Shown: positions 15,101-48,300 of the stretch, piece by piece | How the letters are laid out: each line of letters begins with the position of its first letter | Position numbering within the stretch: position 1 is the stretch's first letter | The notes under the pieces: model-generated | The model's input: the letters and a program-made list of their open reading frames with translations, nothing else | Told to the model about the DNA's origin: nothing | The model's database searches: none | NCBI GenBank assembly: GCA_002633005.1 | Contig: NMRA01000780.1 | Coordinates: 1-64,000, forward strand | DNA length: 64,000 nucleotides | Reading direction: 5' to 3' | DNA from: Phoronis australis | Lineage: Eukaryota > Animalia > Phoronida | Program-made: the position numbers and the translations under genes

Positions 15101-15233
15101 GAGGTAAAATTCACCAAATTTTACAATGAGGTGTCTAGATATGTTTTCCAACTAGCTCAGACGTTTCAATAAATCATGCCAGCGAATATACCTTTGCTGA
15201 AAAACATTTGACGTACTCGACTAATCTATAGAG

Positions 15234-15454
15234 TCATGTGTCAGTGGCCGGTTGTGCCTCCTCGTACTTCAGGCCACCACCGTTGCAAATTTTCGGCTTT
15301 TTACTTCCTCGCCTGATGGCAGTGAACTGTAAGCGCAGGTTCTTTCTACAGTTTGGAAACATTGCGAGGAATTGACGAATCCCTGCGTCCACTATCTCAA
15401 ACAATGAGAGGCACGACGCGCCGACAAATAAGCCCATAGAACCACCGATGTCAC
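15234..15454 (-). CDS. Gene A exon 10: TM2, GAS filter, C-terminus, stop
   Basis: GDIGGSMGLFVGASCLSLFEIVDAGIRQFLAMFPNC...QPATDT*. Confidence 0.96.
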
Positions 15455-18400
15455 CTTGAAAAACAACAAAAACGAGTGAGTATTTAAAACAATTACCAGA
15501 TATGACCACACCTAAATTCGCCTTACTTGGCTGGCTAAATAATATATCCCTTGCTGCCTGCTGTGATAGACTTCTTTTTCAGTCACCAATTTGGGTCACA
15601 ATCAATACGAACATGTGAAATTGCAATTTTAAAACTGGTCAATCTCAATACATATTTTGAATCGTTGGTGGTCTCAACGTGCTTGTTGGAAATACAAATT
15701 TTCAGAACCCTGTTACGGTAAGGGATATTATGAGAACAATTTCATGAGAGTAGTTCATTTTTTGTTGTTTTTAGCCAGCTAACAGGGCGAAAAGGTATTT
15801 TAGTTCTTTTGCTGTTCTTAAAGAAACATTAGAAGCTCCTTTACTGATTACAATACCTAAATATTGAATGCAGAATTAACAAGCATTAATTGTAGATTAT
15901 TATTTTCAGTTACAGAGATCAGCGAGGGAGACAGACTGACGTGCTGGACAACATTACACAATTTGAATTTAGCTGCAACTTTTGCGAGAATGATCAAATT
16001 TAAAGGGACGCAAAATGATGTCAGTGAACGGAATCGTCCCAAATAGCCACTTTAATACAAAACGTGACAAGTCAAACATGAATAAGTTGAATATCACAAA
16101 GGTAGTGCCTACATGAAGTGGATAGTGAGCTCATCATGTTACAGTGCCAGTTAGTTAAAGACCATCAGGTTCCAAACTAAACAATTGGTAAGTGCACTAG
16201 ACGACAATCTACTGGATACCTGTGTTTCGCGTCCCAGCTGAGGTTACTGACCTTTCTGCGTTTATTCGATTCAGTACCAGCCAACATCTATACTTACTAT
16301 GCTCGTAGCTAAGAACGTTTAAATAGTGAGACTACATAGCAATCGCTCGGCAGCAAGCTGGTTTTCGATGATTTGATAAGCAAAGAAAGTATCGATCGAG
16401 CAACTATATCTCAAGTCAGGGTTCGGAGTCTTATCCGTGTAGCTTGAAATCGAGATGGAGGGTATTTTGGACATTTTTCATGCCTCTTCTATGAGAACTC
16501 GCGATGACTGTCAAATATTTTGTACCTCTGTACTTTTGCTTACGTAGATGACTGTCTAGTCTTGGTTTGATTACCCCGGTATCATAGCTGTAAGTTCGCG
16601 TATGAATCTCTAATTTTGACTGTAGTTCGAGTTTGGTCAAGTGCTGGGACTAGACACACATCTGCGTAAAGCGTAACTAAGGAGAGCAAGGAATAACAGT
16701 TAGCTATCTTCGATTTCTCGTTAAAATAGAACGGAAAATGTGAAATAATTCATTCGATTTCGAGTGCAAATGCTTAAGGCCCGGGGACAGGTTTGACGCT
16801 GATGGCCCTAGCCAGATGACATTTAAGTGGTGGTAAGACAGTTCCGCATAAGGTCAAAAGTTTTGTTCACCCTGAATGCTATCTTTTCGACGTGCGTGTT
16901 TGAGACCAGATTTTTGGAGATGCCAATGTCAATATGCATATAATTTCCGCTAATTCAAAATTGATTTTAATATCACTCTACACGAATGTTCTATTTTTCT
17001 TTCATTGTTGATGTATGAAGTAAAACTTTACCGAAAAGCGAAACCATGTCGTAGGCATTCTGCTGCTTGATGTGTTCATAGCTCAAATCTTGCAGGTAGA
17101 CGTCAACTTGAATTATATTGTTCCTAAAATAGAACGTGGAATTACGTAATACATAATCCACAAAACATTCATTGAATTGGTCTTTAAGTACAAGGTGCGC
17201 ATGCGTTTAATATTGAGAATTTAAAAAACAATGCTTGTCTGATTATCAGATTCAGCTATGGAATAATTTTATATTGTTTCTAAACCATGTTTAAAAGAGT
17301 AGCTTACTTTACAAACGATTCTCCCAGTTCATTTCCTTTCTCAAACGTTTCCATTTCTTCTCGCAGTTCTTTGAATAATTCAGCAAACCGCACGTGTTTG
17401 TCCCCGATCTGTTCGCTAATTTTCGCGCGTTTGCGAATGCGCTGCATTTCCTCCCTGACACTTGCACGCCACACGTCCATATGTTTGTTTAGGTCACGAA
17501 CACTAAAGTCTAGATACCCCAACCACGTGGGCGTTTTATTTATCGTACGATCCACGTGTGACTTGTTCACGCACTCAAAACTCATCAATGTGCTAGTCTC
17601 TTTGCACTCAGAGAAGTTCGCCTCCGAGCTAGCAATATCCGCCTCAGAAGTTAAGTACACGTAAGATAGTGCTCCGTTAGCTTGCCGGTGTAAGGTTTCG
17701 ACGGTGGTGTCCATGTGCCGTTTAAGACTCTCCAAGTTCCATGATATTTGAGAAGAACTCTCTTTCAATTCTTCTATTTTCGTTTCCAATTTCTGCGCAG
17801 CTGATGACAGCTGATCGGTGCGTGTTGCTAAATCCATACGGGAAATATTACCAATGTCATTTAAGTAATTTTGAAACTGCAAAGAAAATTCATCCCACTT
17901 CATCAGGCTTTGTTTTTTTAAAATGTTGCTAGGTTGCCTGAGAGATTTCCTTGTCTCTCGAATCTGGACATACAAATTCTTCGTTAATTGGTCAAGATGC
18001 TGCTTTTCTACTCTCAAGAGATATTTTTTTCGAGTCAGGATATTGTCAAGCATTGCGACTTGAACATCAAATGTTTGTACAATAGAGTCAAACTTCATTC
18101 GTGCACTTCTAATGTCAAGTGCCTCATACCTGCGTGGGTCTAGCGTTCTTATGGTTTTATAGTAAAGGGTGAGTAACGCGTGTAGTTGTGATGAAACTTG
18201 TGTCACCTTTTTGCTTTCGTTCGGTTCCATGAGAATGTTCGGGTACCTCCCATGTCCATTACTTTCTGCGGGAAGCGACAGGAGAGGACAAACGAAGGCC
18301 AGTGTCGTGATTGACTCATTCAGAGTTTTCAGCAATTTCAAGTGTTCCACAACAGCGACATTTTGTCGGCCTATTTCGGATTCTAGCAAAGCTGCACTCC

Positions 18401-21400
18401 ATTCGTTCGTAGATGTCGTCCCACGATTGTACGCCAAGCCATAAGTAATCATATTGTCGTACTGAAGTGAACTTCTGACTTTGGTTGCAAGCAAATTCAA
18501 GCATGACTTAACATTAATCAAATTGTCCTCTGTTTCTTCAATAACTTTTGAGTGATATTTTAAAAAGGGAGTCAACGATGTATTGAGTTGAGCCACATCA
18601 TTTTCCAGAGATCGGAGGTTTTGCTTTATGTTATCATAAGATGTGTTGAGTTCCTTGATTCCCTTTTCAACTCGTCTCGAGAACATTCTGTCTTTCCTTA
18701 CTTGCTCTACGTCAACTCGCTGTGCTATTTCCCGCGCTTTCCTGTAGTTCAAAGCAATTTCTGGCGTAAAATGAAATTCACTGTGTGACGTCATTTGGGC
18801 GAGACTAACTTGAGGCTCAACAACAATACGTGAGCATGGTAGAGGACACAAGTCTGTATCGTTCCTGGGTTTTTGCACCCCATCATGAACTACAAAAAAA
18901 TGACAAGGACATGCTTCATGGTAGTGGTACGCTTGCCATCAATAGTGGCATCACAACTCCTATAAGAATACAATGTATCTGACGATATGTCGATAATAGG
19001 GCCGTTCCGGATTACACAGCGACTCTCGAATGTCGGTGTGTTCACCCACAATGCCGTAAACATCCACCAGGCACATTTGCTGTCTCGTTTTGGTGCCACT
19101 GGAGTTTCACATATTATTTGTTGTTGTCTGATTCTTAACAAATTTTTCTCGATTGCGTTACTTTATTCGTCCTTCCAAAACAAACGAAGTGATTCCTGCT
19201 GTGCAGTGGGCTACACTTCGGCGTGGGAAAGTTTGATAAACTGGATAAATACCCGCGGATGCGTGACCTGAAATTCTTCGCGTTCCCGACATCAATGAGA
19301 GATACGAAAATGTGCCTGATTTCCAAAACAAAGTCACGCGCTTTCTTATCTTAGGCAGAAAGGAGAGTTCTATCGCGGTGTAATACGGGACGGCCCTAGT
19401 AGTCTGTGCCCGTTTGAAGACTGTAATAAAGTGTTCTCACTTGAGTAAAGACTTCGGAGAACAATACCGAAAATTATGGGAATTAATGTGCTATACCGCC
19501 ATGTCAAAGAAATTGAACCACTAGCCATTTCAGAACAAAAATTATTGGTTACTAAACTGAATACGGATTTTAACAAGAGGTGAAATGTTGTAACAAATCA
19601 ACTCACTGTCGCGTGCCGCTTTTGCCCATAGCTTCAGTAGGGTAGGCAGTGGACAGATAGGTACTTAAAAGAGAAGGTACAACTGAAATTAATGTCATGA
19701 CAGTCAATGAACACAATTGCCATCATTGGCATCATCGTCACCGTCGTCATCACTGTTGGCGACACCGTCGTCGCCCTGGGAGTCAGATGTCCAAAGTAAA
19801 ACGTATCTAATTACATGAAACCAAGGTAATCGTTTCCACTTGAATATTTTGTATCAACAAACCCATAGTAGCAACAGGAGCATGTGCGAATCAATGATTC
19901 TCGAAGTGTTTAAAAAAAGCGTTCTTAAAATGAATTATTGCATTTTTTTAGGCTTTAAGAACAAAAAAACTAAGCAAGCACTTATTTTGGCGAAATAATT
20001 AAAGAATTTTAAATTTCAAAACAAAATTGATGATCTTTTGGTTTCTCGCCACGTGATATCATGAGTGGAAGACGTTGATCAGTTGACAGCATAAAAGAAA
20101 TGGCGGATAGTACTGATTTTGTAAGTTACGAAGAACCATAGCACGAGCTTTGACGAGTATTATGAAGACGGATGTGAAGAAGGGGGTGAAGACGACACTC
20201 AGGGGAAATAGGTAATGAGTTAGACCTCACCACATCAGCAAACTTGTGTGTCTGTGGCTGTGCAAGTTCGGCGAATGAAGCCGCGTCGGAGTATAGATTA
20301 CTTAGTCCGCGGACCGTCCTGATTTCAGAGTGGTAAATAAAGTCTTTTATTGAATGATAATTCAATTTTCAACCACTTCATTGTAGAGTGATACATGTAT
20401 GTGTCTCGAACTGTAAATCTAACCTAAGTTTTTACCCTTGCTGTCAAATCCAGTCGCGAATAACTGACACTGATTTCATTTCATTTCATTTCATATTGTC
20501 TGTCTGATTGCTATTACATCATCCTCCACGCATGCATATTTCAATAACACTCAGTCAAAATTAGCGTTCAAGACCACTACGACTTGCTGGCGGCGCACAT
20601 GTAGATCAGACAATGGCGGAGACCGGATCTACTAATTTCTTATGTTTGCATATGTTTTCTGATTAAAAGTACACACATTGAAGAGGACATACATGTATTA
20701 AACATTGTCGGTAATCGAATTCAACGATTTATGAACATGATGTGAAGGATTTAAGAGAAATAGGAACCAGATGTGAATCCTAAAATTTGGCCACGTCTCT
20801 GTAATAGGTACTCCTCTCATTCTAGGGTATTTACCCACAAAACATCACGCACCTCAAGTACCCATTCTGCTACAGCACATTCAAATGTATTAATCCTTAT
20901 AAGATTCTACTTATTATGCCATGCAACACAGTTTATTGTAACATTGCATTTTGAGTTGCACTGCTCTCACCCAAAAATGCAAAATTGCAGATAGGGTAAA
21001 TATAAATATAAGTGGAGGACGCGCAGCGTATGTCTCTTCTTAATCAACAGAGGAGTGTGACATTTTGAAAAGTAGGTCACCCAATGTCGTGAAAGATGAG
21101 GGTTAAATCTAGGATAGAGTTCAATAGCTGTCTCGCCTCTAGAAAATCTAGCCAAAATCACGAGTTCTCATTTGAAATGCACGTCAATATCTCACGTAAT
21201 CTCAGTTGCGAAGTCTTGGTTTTACATGTAACTAGGCCCTAGCATAGGACTACGGACAAAATGTCGTCTTATTTAAAGTTGAGTGCATTTTCGAGCATGT
21301 ATATTACCAGATCACTACCAGATCATTTGACCGTTTAAGCTTGGCAATAATGAAACACTCACAGCACACGATCGTGTCTAAATTTTAAGGGTAAACAAGC

Positions 21401-24400
21401 ATTCCACTCACAAAAGTAGTGTGAAATTAAGTTAACCGCAGTCGAAACCTGGCTATCACTGCAAATGAGATTGAGCTACTTCATGTTTGAAATTGAAACC
21501 TATGTAAGCTTACAAGGTTAAAAAATCTATTCGCCTTTTTGAGGTTTAGCAAGAGTTGTTGAATTACGGTATCACCGTCCATATTTCTTACCTTCGTTTT
21601 TTCCGTCGCCCATGTACGCATAGCGGCATCCGTGCGTATCCTTTCTCATTTCTTCCAATTTGCGGTTGATTTTGCAGGCAGGGATAGAATAATAGTGGTA
21701 GTACTTCAGTTTTTGGTTTCTCTTGCACTTTCCGTGAGGGGGCTCAATGTTAGTCATCTGTGGTAATAAATTGATATATTTTCCGTAACAGTGGATTGGA
21801 CTGCGCCATAAGTTTAGATAAGTTGCAACACACCGGTGTAAGTGAGTGTCCCTCTGAATATCGTGTCCGCCCTTCATGTATTTGAATGAAATATCTCGGC
21901 TTTCAATGAATCGTTACGTAGCGTTGGAATATGTAGTACTACACGTTTGTGATTCCCAACTGTCTGCTCCAATGCCGTATATAATGCGCGTATTTAGGTC
22001 CGTGTGCCAATTGCCGTCGCTGTTCCAGCATCAGCAACCATTTTAGTGAGAAAAGCGGGTTAAAAGTGATGGCTCGGATGTAGGGCGTTTCCTATTTATT
22101 GTTCAAGATTAAACTTCCTCAACTATTTTTGATGAGAAATATGAACAATCTTGCGACTGATATAGGCTTTTAAGATACGCTTAGAAGTAATGAGTGTACA
22201 TTGCAACCCAGTTTTAACCGCTTCAGTTGTTTTTTCAGTCGAACATTGTTGGCTTTATCACTGATTTTCCTTGAATAAAAGTATACTAAACCCAGTTTTG
22301 ATGAGTTCAACCACATCCTGGTAATATCACGTACATCATTGTCGTCAATCTTAAAATATAGAAGCAGGATGCACCTTAAACCTCAATACTCCCTACAATG
22401 TCACAGATAGTACATGTATATAATGTAGTTCTGGCGAGGTGGTCTTTCCCCACAGTTGCCAGGTAATTCACTAAAAGCGTATGAAAAGCTATGTACATGT
22501 AAATAAAAAATGCTGGTTAGAGAAAAAAATTCCATCATCGGGTGACACTTCATTCCTTTACATAAATGGTTGACGATTTCACAAAAAAGGAAAAAAATAG
22601 TCAAATGATACCTTCGTTTGGTCCCCTTACGTGGGTGGAAAACGATATAAATAAGAGCCGGAAAGGGGTGTCCTCCAAAAGATTAGCAAGTTCAAAATCA
22701 GAATGGGATTTTTCACCTCTGTTACATGTTTCGCTGGGTCTCTTTTCTCGACTGCACTCTGCCCCACATCTACATGTATGCCGATCATTGGCTCCATCTG
22801 ACGTTTNGAAATTGAACCACTAGCCATTTCAGAACAAAAATTATTGGTTACTAAACTGAATACGGATTTTAACAAGAGGTGAAATGTTGTAACAAATCAA
22901 CTCACTGTCGCGTGCCGCTTTTGCCCATAGCTTCAGTAGGGTAGGCAGTGGACAGATAGGTACTTAAAAGAGAAGGTACAACTGAAATTAATGTCATGAC
23001 AGTCAATGAACACAATTGCCATCATTGGCATCATCGTCACCGTCGTCATCACTGTTGGCGACACCGTCGTCGCCCTGGGAGTCAGATGTCCAAAGTAAAA
23101 CGTATCTAATTACATGAAACCAAGGTAATCGTTTCCACTTGAATATTTTGTATCAACAAACCCATAGTAGCAACAGGAGCATGTGCGAATCAATGATTCT
23201 CGAAGTGTTTAAAAAAAGCGTTCTTAAAATGAATTATTGCATTTTTTTAGGCTTTAAGAACAAAAAAACTAAGCAAGCACTTATTTTGGCGAAATAATTA
23301 AAGAATTTTAAATTTCAAAACAAAATTGATGATCTTTTGGTTTCTCGCCACGTGATATCATGAGTGGAAGACGTTGATCAGTTGACAGCATAAAAGAAAT
23401 GGCGGATAGTACTGATTTTGTAAGTTACGAAGAACCATAGCACGAGCTTTGACGAGTATTATGAAGACGGATGTGAAGAAGGGGGTGAAGACGACACTCA
23501 GGGGAAATAGGTAATGAGTTAGACCTCACCACATCAGCAAACTTGTGTGTCTGTGGCTGTGCAAGTTCGGCGAATGAAGCCGCGTCGGAGTATAGATTAC
23601 TTAGTCCGCGGACCGTCCTGATTTCAGAGTGGTAAATAAAGTCTTTTATTGAATGATAATTCAATTTTCAACCACTTCATTGTAGAGTGATACATGTATG
23701 TGTCTCGAACTGTAAATCTAACCTAAGTTTTTACCCTTGCTGTCAAATCCAGTCGCGAATAACGGACACTGATTTCATTTCATTTCATTTCATATTGTCT
23801 GTCTGATTGCTATTACATCATCCTCCACGCATGCATATTTCAATAACACTCAGTCAAAATTAGCGTTCAAGACCACTACGACTTGCTGGTGGCGCACATG
23901 TAGATCAGACAATGGCGGAGACCGGATCTACTAATTTTTTATTTGTTTTCTGATTAAAAGTACACACATTGAAGAGGACATACATGTATTAAACATTGTC
24001 GGTAATCGAGTTCAACGATTTATGAACATGATTTGAAGGATTTAAGAGTAATAGGAACCAGTTGTGAATCCTAAAATTTGGCCACGTCTCTGGAATAGGT
24101 ACTCCTCTCATTCTAGGGTATTTACCCACAAAACAGCACGCACCTCAAGTACCCATTCTGCTACAGCACATTCAAATGTATTAATCCTTGTAAGATTCTA
24201 ATTATTATGCCATGCAACACAGTTTATTGTAACATTGCATTTTGAGTTGCAATGCTCTCACCCAAAAATGCAAAATTGCAGATAGGGTAAATATAAATAT
24301 AAGTGGAGGACGCGCAGCGTATGTCTCTTCTTAATCAACAGAGGAGTGTGACATTTTGAAAAGTAGGTCACGTCGTGAAAGATGAGGGTTAAATCTAGGA

Positions 24401-27400: not shown

Positions 27401-30400
27401 TAAAAAAATGCAGGTTAGTGAAAAATAATTCCATCATCGGGTGACACTTCATTCCTTTACATAAATGGTTGACGATTTCACAAAAAAGGAAAAAAATAGT
27501 CAAATGATACCTTCCTTTGGTCCCCTTACGTGAGTGGAAAACGATATAAATAAGAGCAGGAAAAGGGTGTCCTCCAAAAGATTAGCAAGTTCAAAATCAG
27601 AATGGGATTTTGCACTTCTATTACATGTTTCGCTGGGTCTCTTTTCTCGACTGCACTCTGCACCACATCTACATGTATGCCGATTATTGGCTCCATCTGG
27701 CGTTTGCATTTTGTTCGGGGTACGTGCCCCATCGTTCCTATGGACCGGCAATGCCATAAAGACCAACACAGCACCCGTAGATGTATAAACGCAGCACATA
27801 ACTGCTGCCGACTGAATAGGTTTGTATAGAGAGAAAAACTCACCTGAACTAATTTGATGGCTGTAAATGCGTGCCTTCCAGGTGATACAGCAATACCAAA
27901 GTCTCGAACCATTGGGACTTCTTTTTGATCGTGGACGAGAAGCTTTATTCCTGCTGTACTCTGTGGTCCTGGCATATATTCATACTGTTCACAGTTCAGA
28001 GTGAGGCGAAGACCGTTGTTGGCCCCTACATGTAGGTAAACCCTTGTAACAAGCAAGTTGCGAGTGCACATGCAAGCGATTAGTGAATTTCAAAACAAAT
28101 TTATATACACCGATGCATCTGGTGTCGATAACAAGCAATATCAAAATGGTCGCCTAGATTTGACTGTATTTTTTGGATTTCTGGGCATTTGATCTCTGTA
28201 GGAAACATCTTCAGCCAAGTTCTGGGTGACTGATTTTGATTATATGTTTAGAATGTGCTTTTCAGTTCAATCTTAATTCGTGGATTCTTGTGATACCTGT
28301 GTTTCTAGTCATGCACAATGAAAACCCACCTGCTGACGTTATCATTTTGGTTCCGTTGCCCTTGTCTTTATGATTGAAAGAGAAGCAAACGCCATGGTCA
28401 GTCATTATGTATTCAAAGTCCTCAACACTGCAATTTTCCCCTTGCCACTTACATCTGAAGCATAAAAGTCCAACATGCACAGTTGAAAGCAACTAGATTT
28501 TGAAATCTACAAATGTACACGAACCTGTGCTACAAATTAAGCATAAATCGTCACGAGAACCGTGACTTTATGTCACGTCTGTGACGTTGTAACTAAAGAG
28601 GACGACGTAGGCTGTAACATGTCACACACGGAGTTGCTGGGAGCTCGCCCTCCAACTTCTTGCTAAAACCAAAACGGCTCCGGTACGGGCTAATGCAAGG
28701 GTATGTCCTGCTACAATTGAGGTCAGCTCCTCGCAACATCGTCGATCCACCACCTCCTATTTTACTGCCATTTCCACAAGCGACCGTTTTACTGACATGC
28801 TCACGAGAACCCACAAGGCAGAATGACTTACTCCTGGAAATGACCACAAATACTGACGCAATAGGAAACGAGAACCGGAAGGTAAGCGTTGACTTTAGAG
28901 TAAGAGAATAGACGAAAGCTGTAAGCTCACCCAGCTATCAAGTCTGTTTTCTTATGAGCTGCCCATGTCCATAGTTGTTCCGATGTCAAGTTGTGGATTC
29001 TGTACTTTTTAGCGTTGGAAAACACTAGCGACTTATTCCACAAGTCGACAATCATCTGATACCAACCCAGTTCTTGTGCTTTGGAGAGTCTACAGAAAGT
29101 AAAATGTTAATCCTTAAGTTAATAAAAATTCCCGTTTATGAGGAATGTACATGTAATGGTCGTGTTTGTTTCTACAGTGTGTGTAATGCTTGTGCACAAA
29201 TATGGCATCGACAAACTTCTGTTGCTTGTTCGATTTGCATGCGCATATGCAGTAGATTTGTTTTGTCGACTGAGGACGTTACTCCGTATCGTAATTATGG
29301 AAGGCGCTATGATCAAAGACCTCTAGCCCTGGTATGACAACTCGATCTCGCGACCTCTAAAGATTACCCGCGTACGTGTGAGAGTTGTTTGCATCTGTTT
29401 GCTTCAGTGTTTTCTACTGTGTACTTGTCATGGAATTTACTTTGATTAAAACTTTTTGCAACTCCGCCATTTCTCAAACGAATTGCATAAGAGCCATATC
29501 ATTAGAAAACCATTTGCCAGTTATTGATGATTATACAAGAACCAAAAGAAAAATAATTTACTTCATGAGTACCTATCATTTCACATACATGGTTTTAAAA
29601 ATTAATTCTAAAACCCAAGACAGACACCAAAATGCGAAAAATAATAGCGTGTAATAATAACATCAAACAGAAAATGAACCAGAGAGATTATATATGACTA
29701 GTTAAGCCACTAGGGATATAATGTCAAAGATTCAAAAGATTTCTACCCTATAAAGACAAAGATTTTACAAAATGGATCACCAGCACTTGCAGTGGATAAA
29801 AACAGGCATTCATCCAAAATTATACACCTTCATATATTATGATTAATTGGACCTTTGCTGCCATTTATTCAGTGAAAATTCAAAAATGCAGGGACATCTA
29901 CGAAAAATTCGATAAACTATTCTAAGTAACTATCCGAAATTTGCAGATAAAAGTTTTCTAATGAACAAAAAATATGTAAATATCTATCATGTAGCTTTGA
30001 AATGTACCGTGGATAGCTCATCTTATTGGTTGCAGTGTAAGACTTTCCATATACGTCAAGAAACTAAACTCTTTTTTGAAGAAAGTAACAGTTATTGATC
30101 CTGATACATACATGTACGTGTATAGTCTGATTTGCAAAACAAGATACATTGAAACACATCTTTACCATTGTAATGTTACTTAACAAAGCTAACTCAGGAA
30201 AATAGCGACATTCATAAAAAGAGACAATGTTATTTTGAACACCTGTTGCATAGTTGTCAAGGTCAACAATCAAGAACAACAAAATGGAATAACTGGTTTG
30301 AAAAATGGGAATTCAGGATAAAAGGCGATTCATCTGGGTCTAAGCCAAAACCTAAGGATGAATTGTTCGCTGAAACATACTAAGAAGTACCGACAGCCTT

Positions 30401-32547
30401 TCTTATCGAACGAGCAATGTAACTCCCAAACTTGCTCGATAGCGTGTGTTGTTGTTGTTTTGCAGTTGAATGGAAAATTTGCGGGGCGGCTAAATACAAT
30501 GAAACGTCCCGTTTTTTTTCTTTTTAGTCGATGGGGAAAGAAATTACAATAGTATATGATGATACATGTTTGTGTGTCAAAAAGCGGGACATTTAGATGG
30601 TGTGGTGGGACGGCAGTAACAATTCAAACAAGTGGAACATTACTCCAAGAACGGGGCGATTGGCGAAGACACTGAACGCTGCCAGTAGCACGACGTGCTG
30701 TATTGGGTTCTCTTACAGAGTCAACATTATTCACTGGTATAGGTGAATATTAAATATACAGTACATTGTAACAGTAGGCCTAATACTAAGAAATCGAATT
30801 AATCAAAAACGACATCTGGGCAACATGTAATATTGCACAAATGAAATAATTATTCAAACAAAGCATACAAACACTAGACACGGGGTCGCAAGCTCTAATA
30901 ATGGGTCCCGTGTGGGAGTTGGCATACCAGAGCTAGAGTTCTATGCGATCAATTCCATAATTTCCTGTCACCAAGTGATAAGAACTGAGGAAGGATGCCT
31001 CATAAATCGTTTCATTTTAGGAAACACGGTGAAAGATGAGTACAGAATTGTCCTAGCAATGCTACGTGTATAAAATAAACCTTTAAATTTGAAAACGATA
31101 ACATTACGCCTTCGTGCAAATGTATTTTCAGTCAACTCTAGGATAATTAATCTTACTTGAAAGTGTTCTGGTTGCAGATGGTTACAGCCGGAAACATGAT
31201 GGAGTCATTGTAGTTCATTTTTATGTCCACGCTCATTGGCCAGGCGTAATAATTTTGAAGACAGCCGCAGACCTGATAGAAGAAAATTGCCATTCCAACG
31301 GTAACAGCCAAAGCCCAAAGACATCTACAACAGATGGCGACACACATATCTGTACACTGTAGTCATCCGGGTATTGACACTTCAACTTTACTGGACTGTC
31401 TTGAGTCTTTTAAAGTGACATAGAACGTGGAAAACAGATTAAATTGCATTACTTAAAGCTGCCTTCCGCCACCGAAACAGAAGTCAAACTGTTCACGAAG
31501 TATTTCTACGGTTTGTTCGTACAATTTCTAAATTCCCGTTGATCTCAACAAATTTTTGCTTTAGTTTCAAATTTCAAAAAAAACAATCTGCAAACTGCTT
31601 GTCACTACTTCGTCGATTTTTCTCCCACAAGACAAAGTACATTTCCGATATTCAAACTGAATAACTCTCGCGTTGGCTTCCCCAAGAAATAGATTCACCA
31701 CGATCTGCTTAAAACGGGTTTCGCGTTCCATGCCTATTTACATGTAGCTGTCACTAATGGTGATACTGGTGATGGGCGATGTGTACTTTTTACCATTGGT
31801 TACCAATAGTAACAAATACCACTAACCCCACTTGAAAAAGCATCAAATTGCTATTTACATTACTCATCGAAGCCATCTGATACCGATCAGAATCAACAAT
31901 TAAAGTAATGAGGTTTTTGATGGGGCACGTTTTAACTCGACAACTGCTTCCAATATCCTGAGGGTCTAAGGACCTATTGTACATTACAGTTATTTCTAAT
32001 CTATTTTATTTTCATTTTTGTGTGAAAATAGTAACATCCAATGTTCTAATTAAAAACTGTAATTTTTATAATCATCATCGTTGCCGCCCTCACTAATATA
32101 TCCGCCATGAAAATATTGTAGGGCTATGGACTCCGTATGGCCTGTTTGTAATTCTGGTGCCAGTTCAATTCAATCGTTATGGACGTGTGTTATTTTCGGA
32201 AAAGATTTGAAATAAGATACTGAGGTTCATTTCAAATTCGACGTCCGTTGATGTATCACTGAAACTAATATTGATAGAATATATTTAGTCAATGGAAGTG
32301 TACAGTAGATCGTCAAAATCTAGAGTAGAGTTAAAAACACGAAATCAAACGAATAGAAGAGGCGTCAAAACAAATATGTGCTGACGAGCATTACTGAGGA
32401 TTTTTTTAAAAGTGGTCCAAAGTTAATAGGGAAATAATAATGATAACTAATAAATACACAAACATGTACATGTATGAACAAATTAGATTACATATTAATA
32501 AACCAAAAACAACAATAAATTGTCAATATATAATAAAGGAAAAATTA

Positions 32548-32799: not shown

Positions 32800-34179
32800 A
32801 GATGAAACATTTAATGACTACAAAGAATCGAAAGATGTGTGCAACTACAGCACTCCATTGGTAAGTTGTGGCGTCACCCAACCATTCTGTACATTGATAA
32901 ATAAATGTAAGCTTTGTACTGTACTAATTCCTTGCTCGTGGTAACAGTCAATGTTTCTTTCGCGAAAAAGTCAGAGTAGAATATCTCCGCTTGATAACCA
33001 CCAATTTAGAAAAACGACACCCGCTAGTCACTTATTTCTGTTTTTCTTTTATGATCTCAATTCCATCGAGTAACACACTAAGACATGGAATGAAAGCCAA
33101 GTACTCATTAGTCCAAAGTAAGCCATTCCAATAGTTTATTTTCAACAATGGAAGCATCTAAACACGTGATATTTTTAATTTACTTTAACTAAAGCAAATT
33201 AAACCCGCGTTTCGTGCAAGAAAATTACTTTTGAGTTAAACGACAACCGCAAAAATCAGTCTCAACTTGATTTTTGTTCATACGTCCCCCACCGGAAACT
33301 AGGTCGCAAGCTCGTCGCATAGAGATTGGTAGATTGGCGTATTCATTGATCACTTTGTTTTTCTTAGGTATGATGAACATAATTGCAAGCGTTTATCGGT
33401 AACCGACTGATGTGTGCTACCTGTATTGTTATAACCAACGAAGACGCGACAAAGGAAACAGTTGTAGTGTCCCAGAGGTGATAACCATGCGAAGCGCTAC
33501 CGCAGGTCGTATGGATGTTGCACGTTAAAAACTAACTTGCGACTTCCATACGACGTACCGGTTCGTCACTGCTCTACAAATAAAATGACACGCTGGTCTA
33601 TGGCAATACCTGGAATCACCCCATTTTGACTAAGCACCAATTCGAGGTCGATTTCATAACAGTAAGTGGTATAAATCAAATCTTATTTTTGTGACAGAAG
33701 ACTGGTGGTGTTTATACGTGTAGCGTTTTAAATACACAATTACAACTGGATGCATTTGGGCATTGACGTCCTTGGCCAAAAAAACGATACATTTAGACTT
33801 CCCTAGTGAGAGTTATCTCAATGACAGAGAGAGAAGATATTCATTCGGTTAGTATCAGCTCATATTTTTACTTTTCGAGAAACTTCGTGCAAAATGTTAT
33901 TGTCATGACGTTGCAAATTACAACTCACCAAAATTAGATTATTTTCCGATTCACAGCAACAGAATCTAATAGCACCGAACATTTCGAAACATGTGAAAAC
34001 ATCAATCTAAAAATAATACGCCGTCAACCATAACCTCACCGTCTCACAAACCATGCCTTCTTCTCAAAGACGTAACGTATGCCATGGATTGTTGTTGCCT
34101 GACTGAAATCAAACCAAATCTTCGCCCAGCTTCGTACTGTAGAGACTGTCGCCTCTTCTTTCTCAATGTCTCCGTCCAT
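15234..34179 (-). CDS. Gene A (whole span): DEG/ENaC, ASIC-like channel subunit with giant extracellular insertion; 10 coding exons, ~963 aa
   Basis: Exons 34040-34179, 31157-31324, 28931-29089, 28330-28454, 27844-28025, 24880-25045 (or copy 21592-21757), 22906-22962 (or copy 19607-19663), 17308-18889, 17032-17123, 15234-15454. All have GT-AG boundaries and matching phases; they sum to 2892 nt. Motifs: TTIHG, FPAVTICNQN, CKWQG, TDHGVCFSFN, GLRLTLN, GDIGGSMGLFVGAS. Confidence 0.93.
17032..17123 (-). CDS. Gene A exon 9: beta11-beta12
   Basis: NNIIQVDVYLQDLSYEHIKQQNAYDMVSLF(G); resembles ASIC 'ENILVLDIFFE.LNYETIEQKKAYE'; 92 nt. Confidence 0.93.
17308..18889 (-). CDS. Gene A exon 8: end of thumb (CPLPC), beta10, then ~490-aa helical insertion
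   Basis: 1582-nt open exon (ORF 17304..18878); TTTTTTGTAG acceptor, GTAAGC donor, phase 1-2. Begins HDGVQKPRNDTDLCPLPCSRIVVEPQVSLAQM and ends GNELGESFVK. Confidence 0.94.
19607..19663 (-). CDS. Gene A exon 7, second (duplicated) copy
   Basis: Identical to 22906-22962. Confidence 0.8.
21592..21757 (-). CDS. Gene A exon 6, second (duplicated) copy
   Basis: Near-identical to 24880-25045 (RKDTHG vs RKNTHG plus silent changes); splice sites intact. Confidence 0.8.
22906..22962 (-). CDS. Gene A exon 7 (57-nt thumb exon), upstream copy
   Basis: (V)PICPLPTLLKLWAKAARD; pyrimidine-rich TAAG acceptor, GTGAGT donor, phase 1-1. Homologous 57-nt exon found in gene B. Confidence 0.85.
24880..25045 (-). 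CDS. Gene A exon 6 (thumb), upstream copy
   Basis: MTNIEPPHGKCKRNQKLKYYHYYSIPACKINRKLEEMRKNTHGCRYAYMGDGKNE; CAG acceptor, GTAAG donor; 166 nt. Confidence 0.9.
26530..27045 (+). mobile_element. Decayed LINE 3' end
   Basis: DAHYLIACPVYNTEREQL (H...CP.Y...R motif), followed by a T-rich 3' UTR and AATAAA. Confidence 0.55.
27844..28025 (-). CDS. Gene A exon 5: palm/beta-ball
   Basis: GANNGLRLTLNCEQYEYMPGPQSTAGIKLLVHDQKEVPMVRDFGIAVSPGRHAFTAIKLVQ; 182 nt, same size as the gene B exon. Confidence 0.96.
28330..28454 (-). CDS. Gene A exon 4
   Basis: CKWQGENCSVEDFEYIMTDHGVCFSFNHKDKGNGTKMITSA(G); matches the DEG/ENaC 'T..G.C..FN' motif; 125 nt. Confidence 0.95.
28931..29089 (-). CDS. Gene A exon 3: short finger domain
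   Basis: LSKAQELGWYQMIVDLWNKSLVFSNAKKYRIHNLTSEQLWTWAAHKKTDLIAG; phase 2-2, 159 nt. The end resembles the family 'GH..EDM' motif before CKW. Not in the ORF track. Confidence 0.88.
31157..31324 (-). CDS. Gene A exon 2: TM1 and post-TM1 motif
   Basis: CLWALAVTVGMAIFFYQVCGCLQNYYAWPMSVDIKMNYNDSIMFPAVTICNQNTFK; TGTAG acceptor, GTAAGA donor; 168 nt. Confidence 0.95.
32550..32600. repeat. (AT)n microsatellite
   Basis: Direct reading. Confidence 0.95.
32735..32795. repeat. (GT)n microsatellite
   Basis: About 30 perfect TG units. Confidence 0.98.
34040..34179 (-). CDS. Gene A exon 1: N-terminus with HG gating motif
   Basis: Translates MDGDIEKEEATVSTVRSWAKIWFDFSQATTIHGIRYVFEKKAWFVR(R), then donor GTGAGG, phase 2. 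Not in the ORF track. Confidence 0.9.
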
Positions 34180-39125: not shown

Positions 39126-39364
39126 CTAACATTCATTTTCAGTAATCGAAACATCGTTGGCAGGTTCCACTTTATTGGGGTGAACGTCACCATTTCTATC
39201 TTGAAACATTTTAGGTTTCCATCTGATGACTGAGAAGCGGAGTCGTAAGTTCCTGCTACAGTTTGGGAAAATCGCCAGGAAGTGATGGATAGCCGCGTCC
39301 ACAATTTCGAATAGTGTGAGGCACGATGCTCCGACAAATAATCCCATAGATCCTCCGATGTCAC
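39126..39364 (-). CDS. Gene B exon 10: TM2, GAS filter, stop
   Basis: GDIGGSMGLFVGASCLTLFEIVDAAIHHFLAIFPNC...TENEC*. Confidence 0.96.
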
Positions 39365-42300
39365 CTGTATAATACATTGAAATAAAACAAAAGTACAATT
39401 GAGTTTCACAAACTAACAGTTATCCGATTCTCTAAACAAAACATCTCGGAACGAAGCTAAAAGAATCCTAAACTGGGTAAAAAAAGCGTGGTTGTTTCTA
39501 GTCAGAGTCCGACGTCTCATCCACCAAAATGAATTATATTACATATCATTTTTCAAAACAACAAAATGTATGTAATCAACCTCTCCCGACAAGATTTCTT
39601 TGATGTTGATTTCCTAAAATCGTTTTGATATTGTGTTATACTGACACCGTGTCTAAGACTTCATAGTCTATTAACATCAACCTCTACCGTATGTACATAA
39701 TGGCATGACGTTTCTACAGGTATTTCTCTACCCATTTCCAAGTGTTATAACGTTCTTAGAGGGAAAAACACGAATACAGCATATGACACACTCATGGGTA
39801 ACAGTTCGGTTAAGGCTTATACTTCTGTTTGCGGCTAAATTTGGACATGGATCCGATCGGTTTTCAATCCATTACTCTCGCCATTAGGCCGTTATTTGAA
39901 ACTCTAAGCAAAATACAATGTATGCTTTACTTCAATGCCATAGGAAATGGGGGTGCCGGGGGTCGTTTCCCTCCAAAAAAATTGCAGGCATCAGGGTTAA
40001 GCCATGGCAACCGACATAGGCTTCGAGAAAGGTCGAAAAAAGAAAGACTATGAATACGGATATGAGAGAAAATTCAAGAGAACCTTTGACAACTCAGCAT
40101 CAGTGCATGATTTACCCTTTGAAGGCCCTGGCCAGGATATAAGTTAGGGCCTCCGTTTTTGCTGTATACATGTCGGTCGTCTAAACATACTTGAAAAAGG
40201 TGCACTTTATCATTCATACATATATTTCGATAAATCGAGAAAATTCGTAAAGCGAAGCTTTTGCGGAGCACATTAATTCACTGGATATATAAAATTCGAT
40301 AAGACAGTTTTGCAATTGCAAAAATTCAAAATTATATTTTCTAGAGGCCCTTCACTAGCAAAGGATAACAAAGACAACTGTCACTCTATTTTTCCTTTTG
40401 TTTTCTTTCTCTAAATTGTGTACAGTGTATCACTTGAGAAAGTTGATGGCTTGGAGATAAAAACCAATTGCTGCGCATTTCCTGACTTTTGAAGACATAG
40501 ATCTTTTCATATTTAAGAGCCCAACTCTTGAAGAGGGCTATTAATGACATTGAAATGGCCATCCTTTTCGTCTTTTGATCGGCAAACTCCTAAGGGGCCG
40601 CTCACGAAGAGAGGGCCCAATGTTGGAATCGATTATCTCTGTTTTCTTGTTTTTTGTGAAATCGTACAACCGACTTTCATGCTGAGGAAGTCACTTTTTC
40701 CAAGGTCACCCGACTATGGAATGAACTGTCACTTTTTACCAAGCTTAATGATGTGTAGCCTTTCATCAATTCCGCAAGACGGAACCCCCACTCGGTGGGG
40801 CGGTTCGGGTGTCCCTCCGTATATGTAAATCCGACACGAGGGGAAGTTGAGATTCCAAATTCATCAATAACACAGAACAACCGTACACAGTATATGAGTA
40901 TCAAAACATTCGACCCAAACAACCAAAAACGTGAAAAATACAATAGGATTGACCACCATCAAAAGGTGGAATTTTGAAGAACATGAAGATCACTATTTGT
41001 GAATTACACAAAAAGGCTACTTCCAATGGTTAGTTATAACTAATGTTATATTTTTCCAATAGTATCACTAGAATAATATTTCTTCTGGATGTCTTTACTA
41101 GGAACTGTTTGTGTTGAATTCACAAATATCGAACGAGAACACAGTGGGCCACGATTTGTGATGACTGTGTACATGCCGAACGGGGGTACTCAAAATACTC
41201 GCAATAGTAAACAAATATTTCAGCGTTGTTTTGAAATTCAAGTTAAAATCGTGAACCGTTATAAGTACCTCGGAAGTGATCAAAAATACACCTTAATATG
41301 AATGCCCAATTTCTCATGTTCCCCCGGTAACCCGTCAAAAATCTGCGATTATGCCTGCGGAAATTGCTTATAATATTCCATTTTGATAAACAAATTAGTT
41401 GGTTTTTGATTTACATGTTTATGTATCTACGAAAACAAGCAGCCGGGTTAATAAATGAGTTTTGGCAATTAGAAGCTAGTATCTTAAGAAATGATGATGT
41501 TTCAGTGAATTTAGTTTAAGCCTGAATATGGAAAAAACTCTATAATCAGATCCCCAAATAGTAAAGTGCACTTGGACGCTTCTTGCCTATCTAAAATAAC
41601 GCTCAAAGACATTGGACAATTCCCAAAAATTTACTCACAATTCAGATGACAATAATTGCATTGCTTTTTGACTTCGGTACAAGATTTGTCGTTCAAACTC
41701 ATAAACAGGGGATCAAAAAGGAATTAAGTGTCATTAAATCATGGTACACGCATTGCTCATGGATTTGATTGCTGGTTTCTGATTTATATGTACATGTTTA
41801 TGCATCCACGCAAATGAGTTGGTTGATGCATGGTTTTTAATACAGTTAGAAGCTTTCAGTATCTTGTAAGAAATGACAATGCTTCAACGAACTAAGTTGC
41901 AGGCAGACATTGGGAAAATTCGATCTGTCATCAGATCCCAAACATAAAAGTTCATTAATTCATTAATTTATCTATCTGCAATAAGTCTCAAAGATATTGA
42001 TAAATGTCGGACAGCTCCACAAAGTGTCCTAAATTTTTCTCACAATTCAAATGACAATAAATTGTTAATTGACTTAGGAAGTAGATTAGTGAGTTCACAA
42101 ACCGTAGATAGAAAAATAAGTTCGTTCAAGTACTTAAATAAATAAAATTAAACTTATTGCTCATCAACTTGGAAAGGCTTTCTTTGGACTTCGTTGATGT
42201 TGCTAGTTTCCAAAAGTTTTGCGCAATGAACTTTCTTCAAAACTGAATCATTTGCTTTCCTTTCCTGTGCATATTACTCACACGATGCACGTCATGGCTG

Positions 42301-45300
42301 ACGCACCCACCATAAAAATTAGGTGTAACCATGAAGTGGGCCTGCGCAGAATCTCAGTGATCCACGGGAGCTGAATTTGAACACCAGGCGTTGAATTTGT
42401 ACATTTTTGGGACACTCTGTATCATTTTCCCCAGTCACAAGCAACTGGACTACCGCTTGTGTTTCCTCAAGGGATTTTAAAACGGCCACAAAGGCACTCA
42501 TACCAGGGACCTCGATACCTCACATTTCAAAAAATTCCTCCAAAGAATGGCCATGATAAAATGAAGTTTTCCTGAAACTCGATCATAATAAAACGACCTT
42601 AGAGCCAGCGCAGAGGAATAGGTAGTTCATCGAATCCACTGTTGGATCCCAGCTACCCGTCAGTGCGCTGGCCCTAAAGCCATTCTTACTCGCCGTGAAA
42701 CTTCCATGGTTTACGGTTACTCAAATATTGATGGCTGCATCTCAGGTATTACCCCTCAACCCACCTGTGGCGGACTTGGGGGATCGGAACTAATATGGTG
42801 ACATCCAGAGAACAGGGGGGATAGGAAGGAGGTAGGTCGGCGAAGTCGAGTTGGTTTGTGCTCCCCCAATATTTTTGCCTACGGGTCTGTACTTATGTAC
42901 GTAATGCATAAGGAGTAGTAGCCAGTCGCCCTTGGCTCCCAGTGAGAGATATTGTTGTAGGCCTATTACTTCATGTGCATAGCTTTCTTGATATGTCTTT
43001 TAGTCGGAGTATCACAGCATGCGTGGTTAAAACAACACGGCATTTAATTCAGGCTGGACTAATAGCAAATTCAAGCAAGCTACAGTGTACAGTATGCAGG
43101 TGAATCTAAATGGCAAATGTCTGCAATATGATTGAGGAAGTTGACTAAGCCTTCGTAGGCAATAAGGAATTCGCGAATGCATAAAAGTACGCTCGAAGAA
43201 AATGGCGTACTGCCAAACAGACGACCAAAGGGTGTCAAGTTCAAACTACGCTGCCTACCAGAAAAATATAACGCACTATCCCCCACCTTGAATGTACGAG
43301 ATACTCGAACGCTGCTACACTAGTAGAAACAGCCGATCGAAACGCCGCGCTAATGTAAATAGTTGATTGGAGTAAACAGACCAAGTGACAGCAGACATAC
43401 ATTAAACGTGAAGGATTAGTCAACTCCGAAATTCGAAAATGGTCTAAAGGGAATACACGAGTGCACGGTTTGAGTACACCGTAGTAAATAACGAAAGACC
43501 AATAGGGTTATCCCGGATTATGTTTCTATTAGCAAATTCTTAAAGGTACATGTACGCTCACAGAGAGAGTTGACATAATGTTGGACTCGATTACGTCTAC
43601 ATGTATTTTCCTGTTTTTTTGTGAAATCGTGCAACCAACTTTCATATTGAAGAAGGTCACTTCCCGCACCGTCGTCTGACCACTCGACGGTGGAATGAAC
43701 TGTCACTCTTTTCCAAGCTTAATGATGTTAAGCTTTTCACAATTAAGGTGTCCCATTTCAGACGGGACCCTCTCTCGTTGGAGCAGTTCGGAGAAATGTC
43801 CTTTTGTCCCTCTATACATGTAAATCAGACACTGCCAAGTATTCACGAGGGAAGTTGTGATTCAAAGTTCATTAAAAAAGAAAAATCATTCGTGCACAGC
43901 ACAGCAGTATCACGACATTCGACCCAAACAACCAAAAATTAACGTGAAAAAATACAATAGGATTGACCGCCATCGAAAGGGAGTTAGGAATTTTAAAGAA
44001 AGTGAAGACTGCTGTTTGTTAACTACACAAAATGACTATTTCCGATGTTACTGTTTCCCATATCATCACAAGAGTAGTATCTCTTTTGAAGATGGTTACA
44101 ATGCGTTGTTTGTAAGGAATTCCCACATCTGGAAAACACTGCTGCCGAGGCTACCATTGGGGTGACCGTGTACATGTAGATGTCGAACGAGTGTACCCAA
44201 ATACTCGTAATAATAAACAAATTAAACAAATATTTCAGCGTTTTTTTTTGAGGTCAAGTTAAACTCGTGAACCCTGAAAGGTACCTCGGAAAGAGCAATG
44301 CCCAATCTCCCATTTCCCCAGGTTACCAATCAAAAATCTGCGCGCATGCCTGCGCAAATTGCTTATAATATTCCATTTTGATCAATAAACTCGTTGCCTT
44401 CTGTTTTACATGTACATGTTTATGTATCTACGAAAACCAAGAGGTTAATTGGTGATTTTTGGCAATTAGAAGCTAATCTTTTAAGAAATGATGACGATTC
44501 AGGGAATTTAGTTGAAGTCTGAGTATGGAAAAAAATATAATCCGATCACCATATAGTGAAGGGCACTTGGACGCTTTTTGCCTATCTAAAATAACTCTCA
44601 AATACATTGACGATATTAAGACACTTCCCAAAAAAATTACCAACAATTCAAATGACAAGAAATGCATTGCTTTTTGGCATCGGTACAAGATTTGTTGTTT
44701 AAGGTCACTAACAGGGGATCAAAAAGGAATTAAGTCATTAAATCTAGGTAAACGCATTGCTCATGGATTTGATTGTTACTTTCTGATTTACATATTTATG
44801 TATCTACGAACGTGGACTGCTTGAGAGATGATTTTTTGACAATTAGAAGCTAATCTTGCAAGAAATGACAATACTTCAATGAACTTAATTGCAGGCCGAC
44901 TTTGGGAAAATTCGATCTATCATCAGATCCCAAATAAAAAGTACGGTAAACAAGTTTTGTCTATCTGAAATAAGTCTCAATGAAATTGGTGAATTTCGGG
45001 CAGCTCAAAAATGTGTCCTAAATGTTCTCACAATTCAAATGACAATAATTTTTTATTGGCTTAGAAACTAGATTACTGGGTTTAAGTTTACAAACCGTAG
45101 ATCGAAAACGAAGTTTAAGTACTTAAATAAATAAAATCAAACTTATTGGTCATGAACTTGGAAATGTTGTCTTTGAACTTCCTTGAGGTTTTTGGTTTCC
45201 AGTAGTATTGCGCAATGAATTTTTTTTCTTCAAAGCTGAATCGTTGGCTTGCATTTCCCGTGCACACCGTGCACACACGGCATGCGCGCACCCAGGCTCG

Positions 45301-48300
45301 AATTTTTGAGGATGTGGACCTTTTATTAAATAAAAAAACGAATACGGGGTTCGTTAAGGGGTATGAATTGTGCACACGCCGAATCCTTCCTTTTTAGTGG
45401 ACTTTTGTTGCGTTTTTTTCGGACTTTTTTCTCTAAGTCGGACCTTTTTGCCCACTTTGACATCAAGCCCCCCGAGTCCCCCCAGGTGCGCGCATGCACG
45501 GAGCACGTCATGGCAGGCACACCCACGTTGAAAATAAGGTGTAGGACCTAACCTTGCAGTAGGCTTGCTTAGAATCTCAGTTACCCATGGCAACTGAATT
45601 TGAACTCCAGACGTTGAAGTGTGTACATTTTTGGACACACTCTGTATCATTTTCCTCAGCAACCAGAAATTGGGCTACCGGCTGTGTTCCATCAAGGGAT
45701 TCTGAAACGGCCACAAAGGCACTCATACATGTACAAGGCACATTGAGACCCGATCTTTCCAAAATTTACTTTTTAAGAATGGCCATAATAAAATGAAGTT
45801 TTCCCGAAACTGGATCATAATAAAAGGAGCCTTGACCTTCCATCCAGCTATAGTTACTGCAGGCAGCTCCCTGCTACCCGTCAGTGCGCTCGGAGCCTAG
45901 AACCATTCTCACTCTCCGTGAATCTTTGTTGGTTCACGGTTACTCAAATCCTGATGGTTGCATCCCCGGTATTACCCCCACCTATGGCTGACGTGAGTGG
46001 TGGGGTTCGGTACAAATATGGTGACATCCAGAGAACGGGGGGATTACGATAGCATGGGGGTAGGTTGGCAAAGTCAAATTGGTTTGTGGCCCCCAATAAT
46101 TTTTTCCTTCCTACGGGCCTGTATCAGGTGACATTTTGAAAAAGTGTACAGCTACAAATACCGAATCACTGACGCAATCCTCAAAAGAAAATACATAAAA
46201 GAACTAATGCTTTTTCGGTCTCAGACTGGAAATGTAGTGAAAAGTTTCTCGTCAACAGCAAACTTCATACATTTTGACAAGGCACTTGTCTGATTGTCAC
46301 TATAGACAGTTATAGGCCATTGTCCCAGCTCTCTTATCTTTCCCCTCCGTCGCTACTTTCAGGAGGCAACGGGAACTTTGCATTAAAACCATCTACAGAT
46401 GTTCAAAAGTCAATTTCAAAAAAGTTCTCAAGAATATACTTGCACGTTTACTAAACTGAGTAATAATTTTAATTTAAAAATAGCCTCAACTGGCCCCCTT
46501 GCCCAATCCCTTTAAATCCGCCACTGGATACAATTCTTGGCATGTTAGCAGTTTTGAGCTGAAACCATGAAGTTTTGAATTCACAATAGACTGGCAAGAT
46601 GTCTGGCCCTTGGTGAATTCATATCTCAGATTCTGCTAAAAATTCAGAGCTCCTGGTTTTTTCAGATATTACGAGGTCTAATGGAAAGCTACTGCAAAAA
46701 TGGATCAACATTGAGCGCAAATAGACATTCAATACTGAGAAGTGTTTAAGTTTTTGAGTTCTTCTATCACAAGCAGTGTTACAGACACTTTACGGATGTA
46801 ACAAAAATTGAAAAAGCTCTTAAAAAAGAAAAAGACCGAACTGGTGAAGAAAGCAATGTTGACCCTACTAGAAAATTAAAGAGATTGTCACTGTCAGTTC
46901 CATTTAACAGTGCTCAAAGAAACTATTATCTGTTGTCACCACAATGTATCATTTGCTACAAATCAAAGTGCATCACAGAGAACTTCACAAACAAAAGAAA
47001 ACTTGAAAACCTATCCCAGTTCCAAGCATTCACTTGTAAATAGGCCTACCTATTCTTAATGCCATTTGTGGTAAATGATCTTTAGTTTAGGCCAGGGAAA
47101 ACAAAATTACTTTGGTTGATAAATTTGCAGTATTATTCGTCCCAATTTCAAAGGTACTGGCAGTAGTTCTTTCCTACATGTGAGTGATCAGCACTGCTTT
47201 TTATGAAGTTCCAAGCCTCTTTTCAGACATTTTTTTTGTAAAATAATGGACAGTGCTTGGAATTTGAGAAATGTAAAATGGAAATATTGCTCGTATTCTG
47301 CAATTCTTTATCTTGAAAATTCAAATGATGCCCAGATTTCAGAGTCTCACATTTTGAGGATTTTTGAATTGAGAATTTTTAACTCTTTAAAGTTTTTACT
47401 CTCCCAATTATATCCTATCTATAACAGGAAGCGTTCAAAGAAATTTTAGCTCTACGGTAAATTTCACACAAAAACTATTGCCAACACGACTATTCCTCTA
47501 TTTCCAAAGACAGTATTAAGGATGATACAAATTCTTCTGTGTCTTAAATTGTTTGAAGATAACTGTACAGGGCAATCAATGCTATTAATGATGCTCATTT
47601 CTCTTAATGTTCACTTTTGCTGTGCACATTGACAAAATAAAATTTCGCTTATTGGCCATACTGTGTGCTAAAGTGAAGAGCATTTTGGTTACCTATTTCA
47701 GTAGAAAGGGTTACTGTAACAAGGCGGAAGTGTTTAGATGAAACAGTATTCAGGTTGACAAAAAGTTTTGAATCCAGGTAGGGTGCAGACTTGCAGACAT
47801 TTTTTTTAACTTTGTCATTAAAGTTGGGCTCAACATGATTTGTGTTTCCTGGTCAACTCACGGAAGGCATTGAACGTTTTGTACGCAAGCTGTACGGTGA
47901 CTCATCATCAACAGTTAACAAAGCACGCTACCACATATTCAGGTTGTAATCTGTGATGGAATCATCTCTGCCTCCTAATCATGATTGTTTCCTGTTACAT
48001 GCCAAAAGAGCAAAGTACCAGTGTGCCATTCACAAATGAGCCTCGCGACAGCATGTCAGAGCACTATCTCCAGTTGGTAATGGGTGGTTTTTGTCGCATG
48101 GTAGTCTAGAGTTCCACTGGATGACTCTGCCTTTAAACCCGGAAAATGTCATGAAAATGTAAATTATAAGTGTAAAAAGAGTAGCACAGAAATGTGCTCT
48201 TGTTTGAAGTCGGACATGCCATGTTATAAGTTGTGTGACTGTCGAGTTTGTGTAAACAGGTGTCTCAAGAAACAACTTTGTATGACAATAATGATGATAT

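Follow-up and report, generated by a model that had tools for sequence, protein, structure and literature searches.

Described channels close to the gene reported here include ASIC1, ASIC2 and BASIC (ASIC5), members of clade A of the DEG/ENaC superfamily. In ASIC1, beta10 and beta11 are neighbouring strands of the palm, separated by about 22 residues of knuckle when counted on an alignment. The MEC-4/UNC-8 degenerins and FaNaC have enlarged extracellular domains, but in the degenerin sequences of an excerpt of PMC9822975 (supplement 4) the cysteine-rich extra precedes the palm, being part of the finger region, and the beta10-beta11 link is short. A passage of the same paper groups the Caenorhabditis elegans channel DEL-10 with ASIC, BASIC and TadNaCs. 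Here we analysed a window of 64,000 nucleotides from the phoronid Phoronis australis (assembly GCA_002633005.1, contig NMRA01000780.1, positions 1 to 64,000) and found a gene, referred to as gene 1, that is predicted to encode a clade A-like subunit with 495 residues between beta10 and beta11, together with a tandem paralog, gene 2. We consider it very probable that this architecture is real.

The window holds only two long open reading frames (ORFs), both on the minus strand and about 540 codons in length (17304-18938 and 50301-51908), which are 48% identical at the amino-acid level. The first of these corresponds to a 1582-nucleotide exon of gene 1 (18889-17308, minus strand), whose AG acceptor is rich in pyrimidines and whose donor reads GTAAG; it is entered in phase 1 and left in phase 2. 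This exon opens with the final thumb cysteines (CPLPC), followed by beta10 (EPQVSLAQM), and exon 9 (17123-17032) opens at beta11 (NNIIQVDVY). In all, ten exons with AG/GT ends and compatible phases form an open frame of 963 residues, with residue 357 as the start of beta10 and residue 861 as that of beta11 (Table 1). The gene model, its length and the position of the insert, all proposed in an initial annotation of this DNA made from its letters, are therefore borne out by the in-frame chain. A 933-residue model with a shortened finger proved to be wrong: the finger exon begins at 29089, the start that obtained the top score on the whole minus strand with a finger-segment profile of nine homologs. 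Hydrophobic peaks are present only around residues 51 and 868 (numbering of the 933-residue draft), as expected for two transmembrane segments (TM1 and TM2), and the HG motif before TM1 as well as the GDIGG motif and the GAS belt in TM2 are intact, as they are in ASIC1, ASIC2 and BASIC, with which gene 1 shares the core fold.

Exons 2 and 5 matched the Pfam family ASC (PF00858) above the cut-off, and the short exons 9 and 10 matched it below the cut-off. When exon 5 was used as a query, one protein was recovered, a predicted RefSeq entry of the scallop Argopecten irradians (XP_069129598.1, 911 residues, named 'degenerin-like protein del-10'). In the PDB, ASIC1, ASIC2 and BASIC were the closest matches of exons 2, 4 and 6 as well as of this scallop protein, and for exon 5 ENaC beta was slightly ahead. 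By these marks gene 1 encodes a DEG/ENaC subunit, predicted to form a trimeric, amiloride-sensitive Na+ channel. Six of the ten thumb cysteines are kept in gene 1, whereas the scallop relative retains all ten. The four that are missing are absent from both paralogs (exons 21592-21757 and 19607-19663 in gene 1, 57903-58068 and 53646-53702 in gene 2) and, by the ASIC1 pairing, presumably make up two complete disulfides; the thumb may have been loosened in this lineage. A wrist histidine (H73) and a palm lysine (K211) are named as proton-sensing residues of ASICs in a passage of PMC10507113. Neither is conserved in gene 1, where the wrist reads W-P-M, as in BASIC, and the K211 position is occupied by Ala or Ser. 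Accordingly, gene 1 has none of the traits of a bona fide ASIC (H73 and K211, a short two-helix knuckle, ten thumb cysteines), and the label 'ASIC-like' given in the initial annotation is apt for the clade A core but not for proton sensing.

Four runs of raw RNA reads (X1-X4) were inspected for splice junctions, which were listed from three reads upward. Junction 19607>18889, at the 5' end of the large exon, was covered by four reads with four starts, and junction 21592>19663 by three reads, in both cases in run X1 only. Junction 17308>17123, at the 3' end, was not listed in any of the four runs at this threshold, such that, of the two flanking junctions named in the initial annotation, the RNA reads cover the 5' one. 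If the exon were not continued to TM2, transcripts would end in or after it and the product would be a helical protein, either secreted or with one membrane pass; alternatively, the model would be an artefact. This explanation is in line with the unlisted junction and with the paralog being nearly silent in three runs, yet the RNA depth across the large exon is patchy, at about 0-2, too low for three junction reads to be expected. Moreover, gene 2 carries the same donor and phase as the large exon of gene 1. From 57 metagenome-contig loci fetched with the scallop protein, we chose the nine with a long ORF ending in the terminal motif of the insert, and in all nine a phase-2 GT donor lies five bases past a conserved Phe codon, with a beta11 exon following downstream. 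The sole internal GTRAG in the large exon is in phase 0, which is the wrong phase, and skipping of the exon would join phase 1 to phase 2 and shift the frame. In addition, if the ASIC1 disulfide pairing applies, two of the three thumb cysteine pairs that remain would bridge exon 6 and the large exon. Because of the donor and phase of the paralog, the nine loci, the phase of the internal GTRAG and the cysteine pairing, we regard 17308>17123 as indirectly supported. The scallop protein and DEL-10, which continue from insert into TM2 within a single record, likewise make an exon that leads nowhere highly improbable. RNA hence shows the 5' junction, and for the 3' junction the sole demonstration is the conserved position of the intron.

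Within the insert there is no membrane-like segment (maximal 19-residue Kyte-Doolittle value 1.23), and we therefore place it outside the cell, between TM1 and TM2. Its hydrophobic residues recur with an amphipathic period of 3.5-3.6, a signal reached by none of 200 shuffles, whereas periods 2, 3, 4 and 7 stayed at the level of chance. The helical character ascribed to the insert in the initial annotation is thereby upheld, as are the two cysteines shared with the paralog, which lie at insert positions 97 and 168. No furin-type R-x-K/R-R site was present in either paralog sequence scanned. For the large exon, comparison with the paralog gave a ratio of nonsynonymous to synonymous substitution rates (dN/dS) of 0.25 over 525 codons, and for two core exons ratios of 0.09 and 0.10, all approximate values with synonymous sites near saturation. 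The insert is thus under purifying selection and diverges faster than these core exons.

The insert matches no Pfam family and no solved structure. None of the Pfam families reached the cut-off with the large exon, and its weak matches (Bacillus HBL, apolipoprotein, laminin II) fell below it and were read as coiled-coil noise. A word-indexed search among longer proteins returned no match for the insert, and HMMER against 1.84 billion representatives returned a single one, an unnamed fragment of 126 residues (expectation value, E, 8e-4), which itself found no match when used as a query. An alignment profile of the insert had no match among PDB sequences. Foldseek of an insert model against the PDB gave nothing at E<=0.001 and only generic helical bundles. 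In the ESM Atlas there was no usable feature match for either insert; for the scallop protein, the model deposited there has a mean predicted local distance difference test score (pLDDT) of 0.67, and the best structural neighbour of its insert a template-modelling score of 0.31.

Since insert queries gave almost nothing, the family could be reached only through a core exon. The initial annotation's guess that predicted homologs might exist in databases turned out to be right, in that the architecture is also seen in the scallop RefSeq protein, the cloned C. elegans DEL-10 and loci of other animals. The scallop protein has a 478-residue insert at the same site and a core about 35% identical to gene 1 up to beta10, but identity in the insert is no more than about 15%, and local alignment of the inserts gave nothing significant. 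Global alignment of the two inserts gave a z of about 4, which 0/300 block shuffles reached. DEL-10 (NP_495302.3, 1069 residues) has about 370 residues between beta10 and beta11, as counted by eye in the excerpt of supplement 4 of PMC9822975, and the insert ends displayed there resemble those of gene 1, with an A-x-E motif in the first part and G-x-x-F-V-x-x-N at the close; it differs in its shorter insert with an acidic stretch and in its long C-terminal tail. Supplement 12 of PMC10507113, which displays the first 400 residues of each sequence, contains 16 occurrences, all in lophotrochozoans, of a six-residue core motif common to gene 1 and the scallop protein. Nine of these sequences measure 923-1054 residues and the others are fragments or measure 608-700; among the 16 are seven Platynereis sequences of 956-1017 residues. 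The trimmed alignment of that paper (supplement 4, seen at 9 of 13 places) leaves the insert out, and in it five of the nine long sequences show beta11 and TM2. By subtraction, these five would carry an insert of about 450-500 residues, and several Platynereis and Octopus channels probably possess a long insert in this position. One further Platynereis sequence in the supplement of PMC10507113, Pdum_Contig8214 (635 residues), has the core motif and TM2 and would, by subtraction, have some 130-150 residues of insert; it is a possible natural control for a channel without the long insert.

Four of the metagenome loci hold the entire insert within one ORF (477, 477, 579 and 577 residues), and others have an intron directly after beta10. 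Insert lengths across the relatives are about 370-580 residues. The phase-2 intron before beta11 is common to gene 1, its paralog and the loci examined. Scored against a profile of eight homologs, the N-terminal insert motif was matched by 0/1000 shuffles for gene 1 and 5/1000 for gene 2, and the last 45 residues of the insert, anchored by the intron and compared with ten homolog ends, were matched by 0/5000 shuffles and by none of about 400 other windows in both paralogs. We regard as solid, on these sequence comparisons, the assignment of the first and last insert helices as homologous to those of the scallop protein and the metagenome loci, a set that did not include DEL-10 itself. The long-insert architecture is not unique to gene 1. 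Rapid divergence of the insert appears to be general, because the inserts of two loci (L007 and L012) are equally unalignable to the mollusc-type inserts. Another relative, locus L036, has an ORF resembling a von Willebrand A (vWA) domain (2151-3062) and a leucine-rich-repeat-like ORF (7664-8647) among its channel exons; a fused vWA domain and nested genes are both possible.

The insert takes the place of the knuckle, and we propose that it forms a helical tower above the trimer, outside the cell. As beta10 and beta11 are adjacent, the insert must leave and re-enter at the top of the palm, so topology would require an out-and-back bundle, although the insert model is of low confidence (pLDDT 51). 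In a trimer, the three inserts would rise close to the three-fold axis, with the conserved end helices as a stem coupled to beta10-beta11 of the palm and the fast-evolving middle as a lineage-specific binding head. Binding of an extracellular partner, for which a ligand (chemical or protein) is a likelier candidate than a tether to the matrix, would then move the palm and, through it, the pore gate. We assign a probability of roughly 0.4 to this reading, in which the predicted tower gates the pore on binding an outside partner. A binding module is the best fit because the stem is conserved, the head is variable and the gene family is expanding; the many Platynereis paralogs in the supplement of PMC10507113 would suit a diversifying receptor family.

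A tower could also serve without gating, in the choice of partner subunits, in trafficking or localisation, or in shielding, while gating proceeds through the customary sites in palm, thumb and pore. In solved DEG/ENaC structures, the knuckle is close to the three-fold axis and contacts neighbouring subunits, which would suit such a role. About 500 selected residues across distant lineages, however, far exceed what other DEG/ENaCs would need for assembly, and we think a non-gating tower unlikely. DEL-10 bears on both readings. Expressed alone in a pH screen, it gave no current different from controls (a passage of PMC10424705), which a non-gating tower accommodates; its activating stimulus is termed unknown in a passage of PMC9822975, and the two observations together fit a missing activator, as expected of a gating tower.

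Several points weigh against our proposal, besides the unlisted 17308>17123 junction. The oocyte silence of DEL-10 is equally explicable by missing subunits or trafficking, according to a passage of PMC10424705, and in a figure legend there DEL-10 appears with the currents blocked by amiloride at pH 7.4. Single-sequence AlphaFold models are weak both for the insert (six long helices, mean pLDDT 51, predicted template-modelling score 0.37) and for the scallop protein (pLDDT 33). For the middle of the insert, hidden Markov model and HH profile scores stayed within the decoy range. When the two window inserts were paired globally with five full inserts, only the scallop pairings (z 3.6-3.7) exceeded 2.2, the other eight of the ten ranging from -1.0 to 2.2. 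An internal 'G..TK..LA' motif that seemed shared by eye failed against shuffles (153/1000 and 52/1000) and was rejected.

Glycosylation bears on a further possibility, that the tower is a mechanical tether, fastened to mucus or extracellular matrix, through which force on the palm would gate the channel. According to a passage of PMC6955349, shear sensing by alpha-ENaC depends in part on N-glycans in its palm and knuckle. The N-glycosylation sequons named in the initial annotation are present, eight in all in the gene 1 insert, and three of them share an aligned position with the paralog; two mollusc-type inserts are rich in sequons (0/500 and 16/500 shuffles). The gene 1 sequons do not serve as evidence, since 46/500 shuffles reach eight, and counts are also at chance in the paralog insert (175/500) and in the scallop protein (64/500). 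Moreover, fast divergence and paralog expansion would suit a diversity of ligands better than a single matrix anchor, and a tether seems to us improbable. More broadly, and a little more tentatively than the gating proposal for gene 1, the tower may represent an ancient, unnamed family of extracellular domains that has a fold of its own and would make nematode, annelid and mollusc DEG/ENaCs knuckle-gated receptors for a ligand or a tether, a route of gating not described for the superfamily. Such an old family would account for DEL-10 lacking a known stimulus.

Titles and abstracts returned by a full-text search, which did not cover subscription papers, contained no description of the insert, and it is unmentioned in the passages seen of PMC9822975, PMC10424705, PMC10148893, PMC10507113, PMC9234716, 10.1101/261990, PMC13685373, PMC10374624 and PMC6955349. 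The architecture is shared with database proteins and DEL-10, yet has no family model, structure or description that we found. A knuckle addition of about 500 residues common to distant animals is a candidate coupler of invertebrate DEG/ENaCs to tethers or ligands; passages of PMC10374624 and PMC10424705, respectively, mention a C. elegans del-10 mutant strain and an oocyte expression clone of DEL-10.

Table 1. Exons of gene 1 and parts of gene 2 in the 64,000-nucleotide window.
Feature	Coordinates	Strand	Remarks
Gene 1 exon 1	34040..34179	-	Start codon, cytoplasmic N-terminus, HG motif; alignable to scallop XP_069129598.1
Gene 1 exon 2	31157..31324	-	TM1, wrist, beta1-beta2; Pfam ASC E 2e-12; top PDB match ASIC5/BASIC
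Gene 1 exon 3	28931..29089	-	Finger; chains in frame
Gene 1 exon 4	28330..28454	-	Palm / beta-ball; matches ASIC1 173-205, E 2e-5
Gene 1 exon 5	27844..28025	-	beta6-beta9; Pfam ASC E 7e-11; 62% identity with scallop XP_069129598.1
Gene 1 exon 6	21592..21757	-	Thumb, first part; duplicated at 24880-25045 with 3 nucleotide differences
Gene 1 exon 7	19607..19663	-	Mid-thumb; second copy near 22906-22962; RNA junctions on both sides; counterpart in paralog
Gene 1 exon 8 (1582 nucleotides)	17308..18889	-	Thumb end, beta10 (~18818-18792), entire 495-residue insert (~18791-17308)
Gene 1 exon 9	17032..17123	-	beta11-beta12; Pfam ASC E 9e-4 (30-residue piece, below cut-off); 87% identity with paralog
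Gene 1 exon 10	15231..15454	-	TM2 (GAS belt; deg site occupied by Gly), then a short C-terminus and the stop codon
Gene 2 large exon	50305..51889	-	496-residue insert; 48% amino-acid identity and same splice phases as gene 1
Gene 2 within window	39150..60936	-	Exons 60936-60755, 58068-57903, 53702-53646, 51889-50305, 49098-49007, last from ~39364

The 5' exons of gene 2 were not found in the window. Around a single N at 22807, a 3-kb stretch within 19509-27705 occurs twice with 97% identity (19509-22480 and 22808-25756), and a further duplicate pair lies nearby (22480-22806 and 27377-27705). The 3-kb duplication doubles exons 6 and 7 of gene 1; both copies cannot share one transcript because their phases clash, and two haplotypes assembled in tandem are the likely origin.

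Repeats of other kinds are also present in the window. Within 10712-12856 and 39973-46123 there are at least three copies of 1.1-1.8 kb, direct and inverted, with 68-75% identity. They are probably remnants of old transposons, and the last intron of gene 2 contains two of the copies. A short ORF on the plus strand (52705-53031) has no Pfam match and resembles the endonuclease end of a Penelope-like element. Finally, intronic repeats at 21143-21204, 19040-19400, 49200-50000 and 54450-57470 attract many RNA reads on both strands at 90-95% identity, and these reads stem from copies elsewhere, not from genes 1 and 2.

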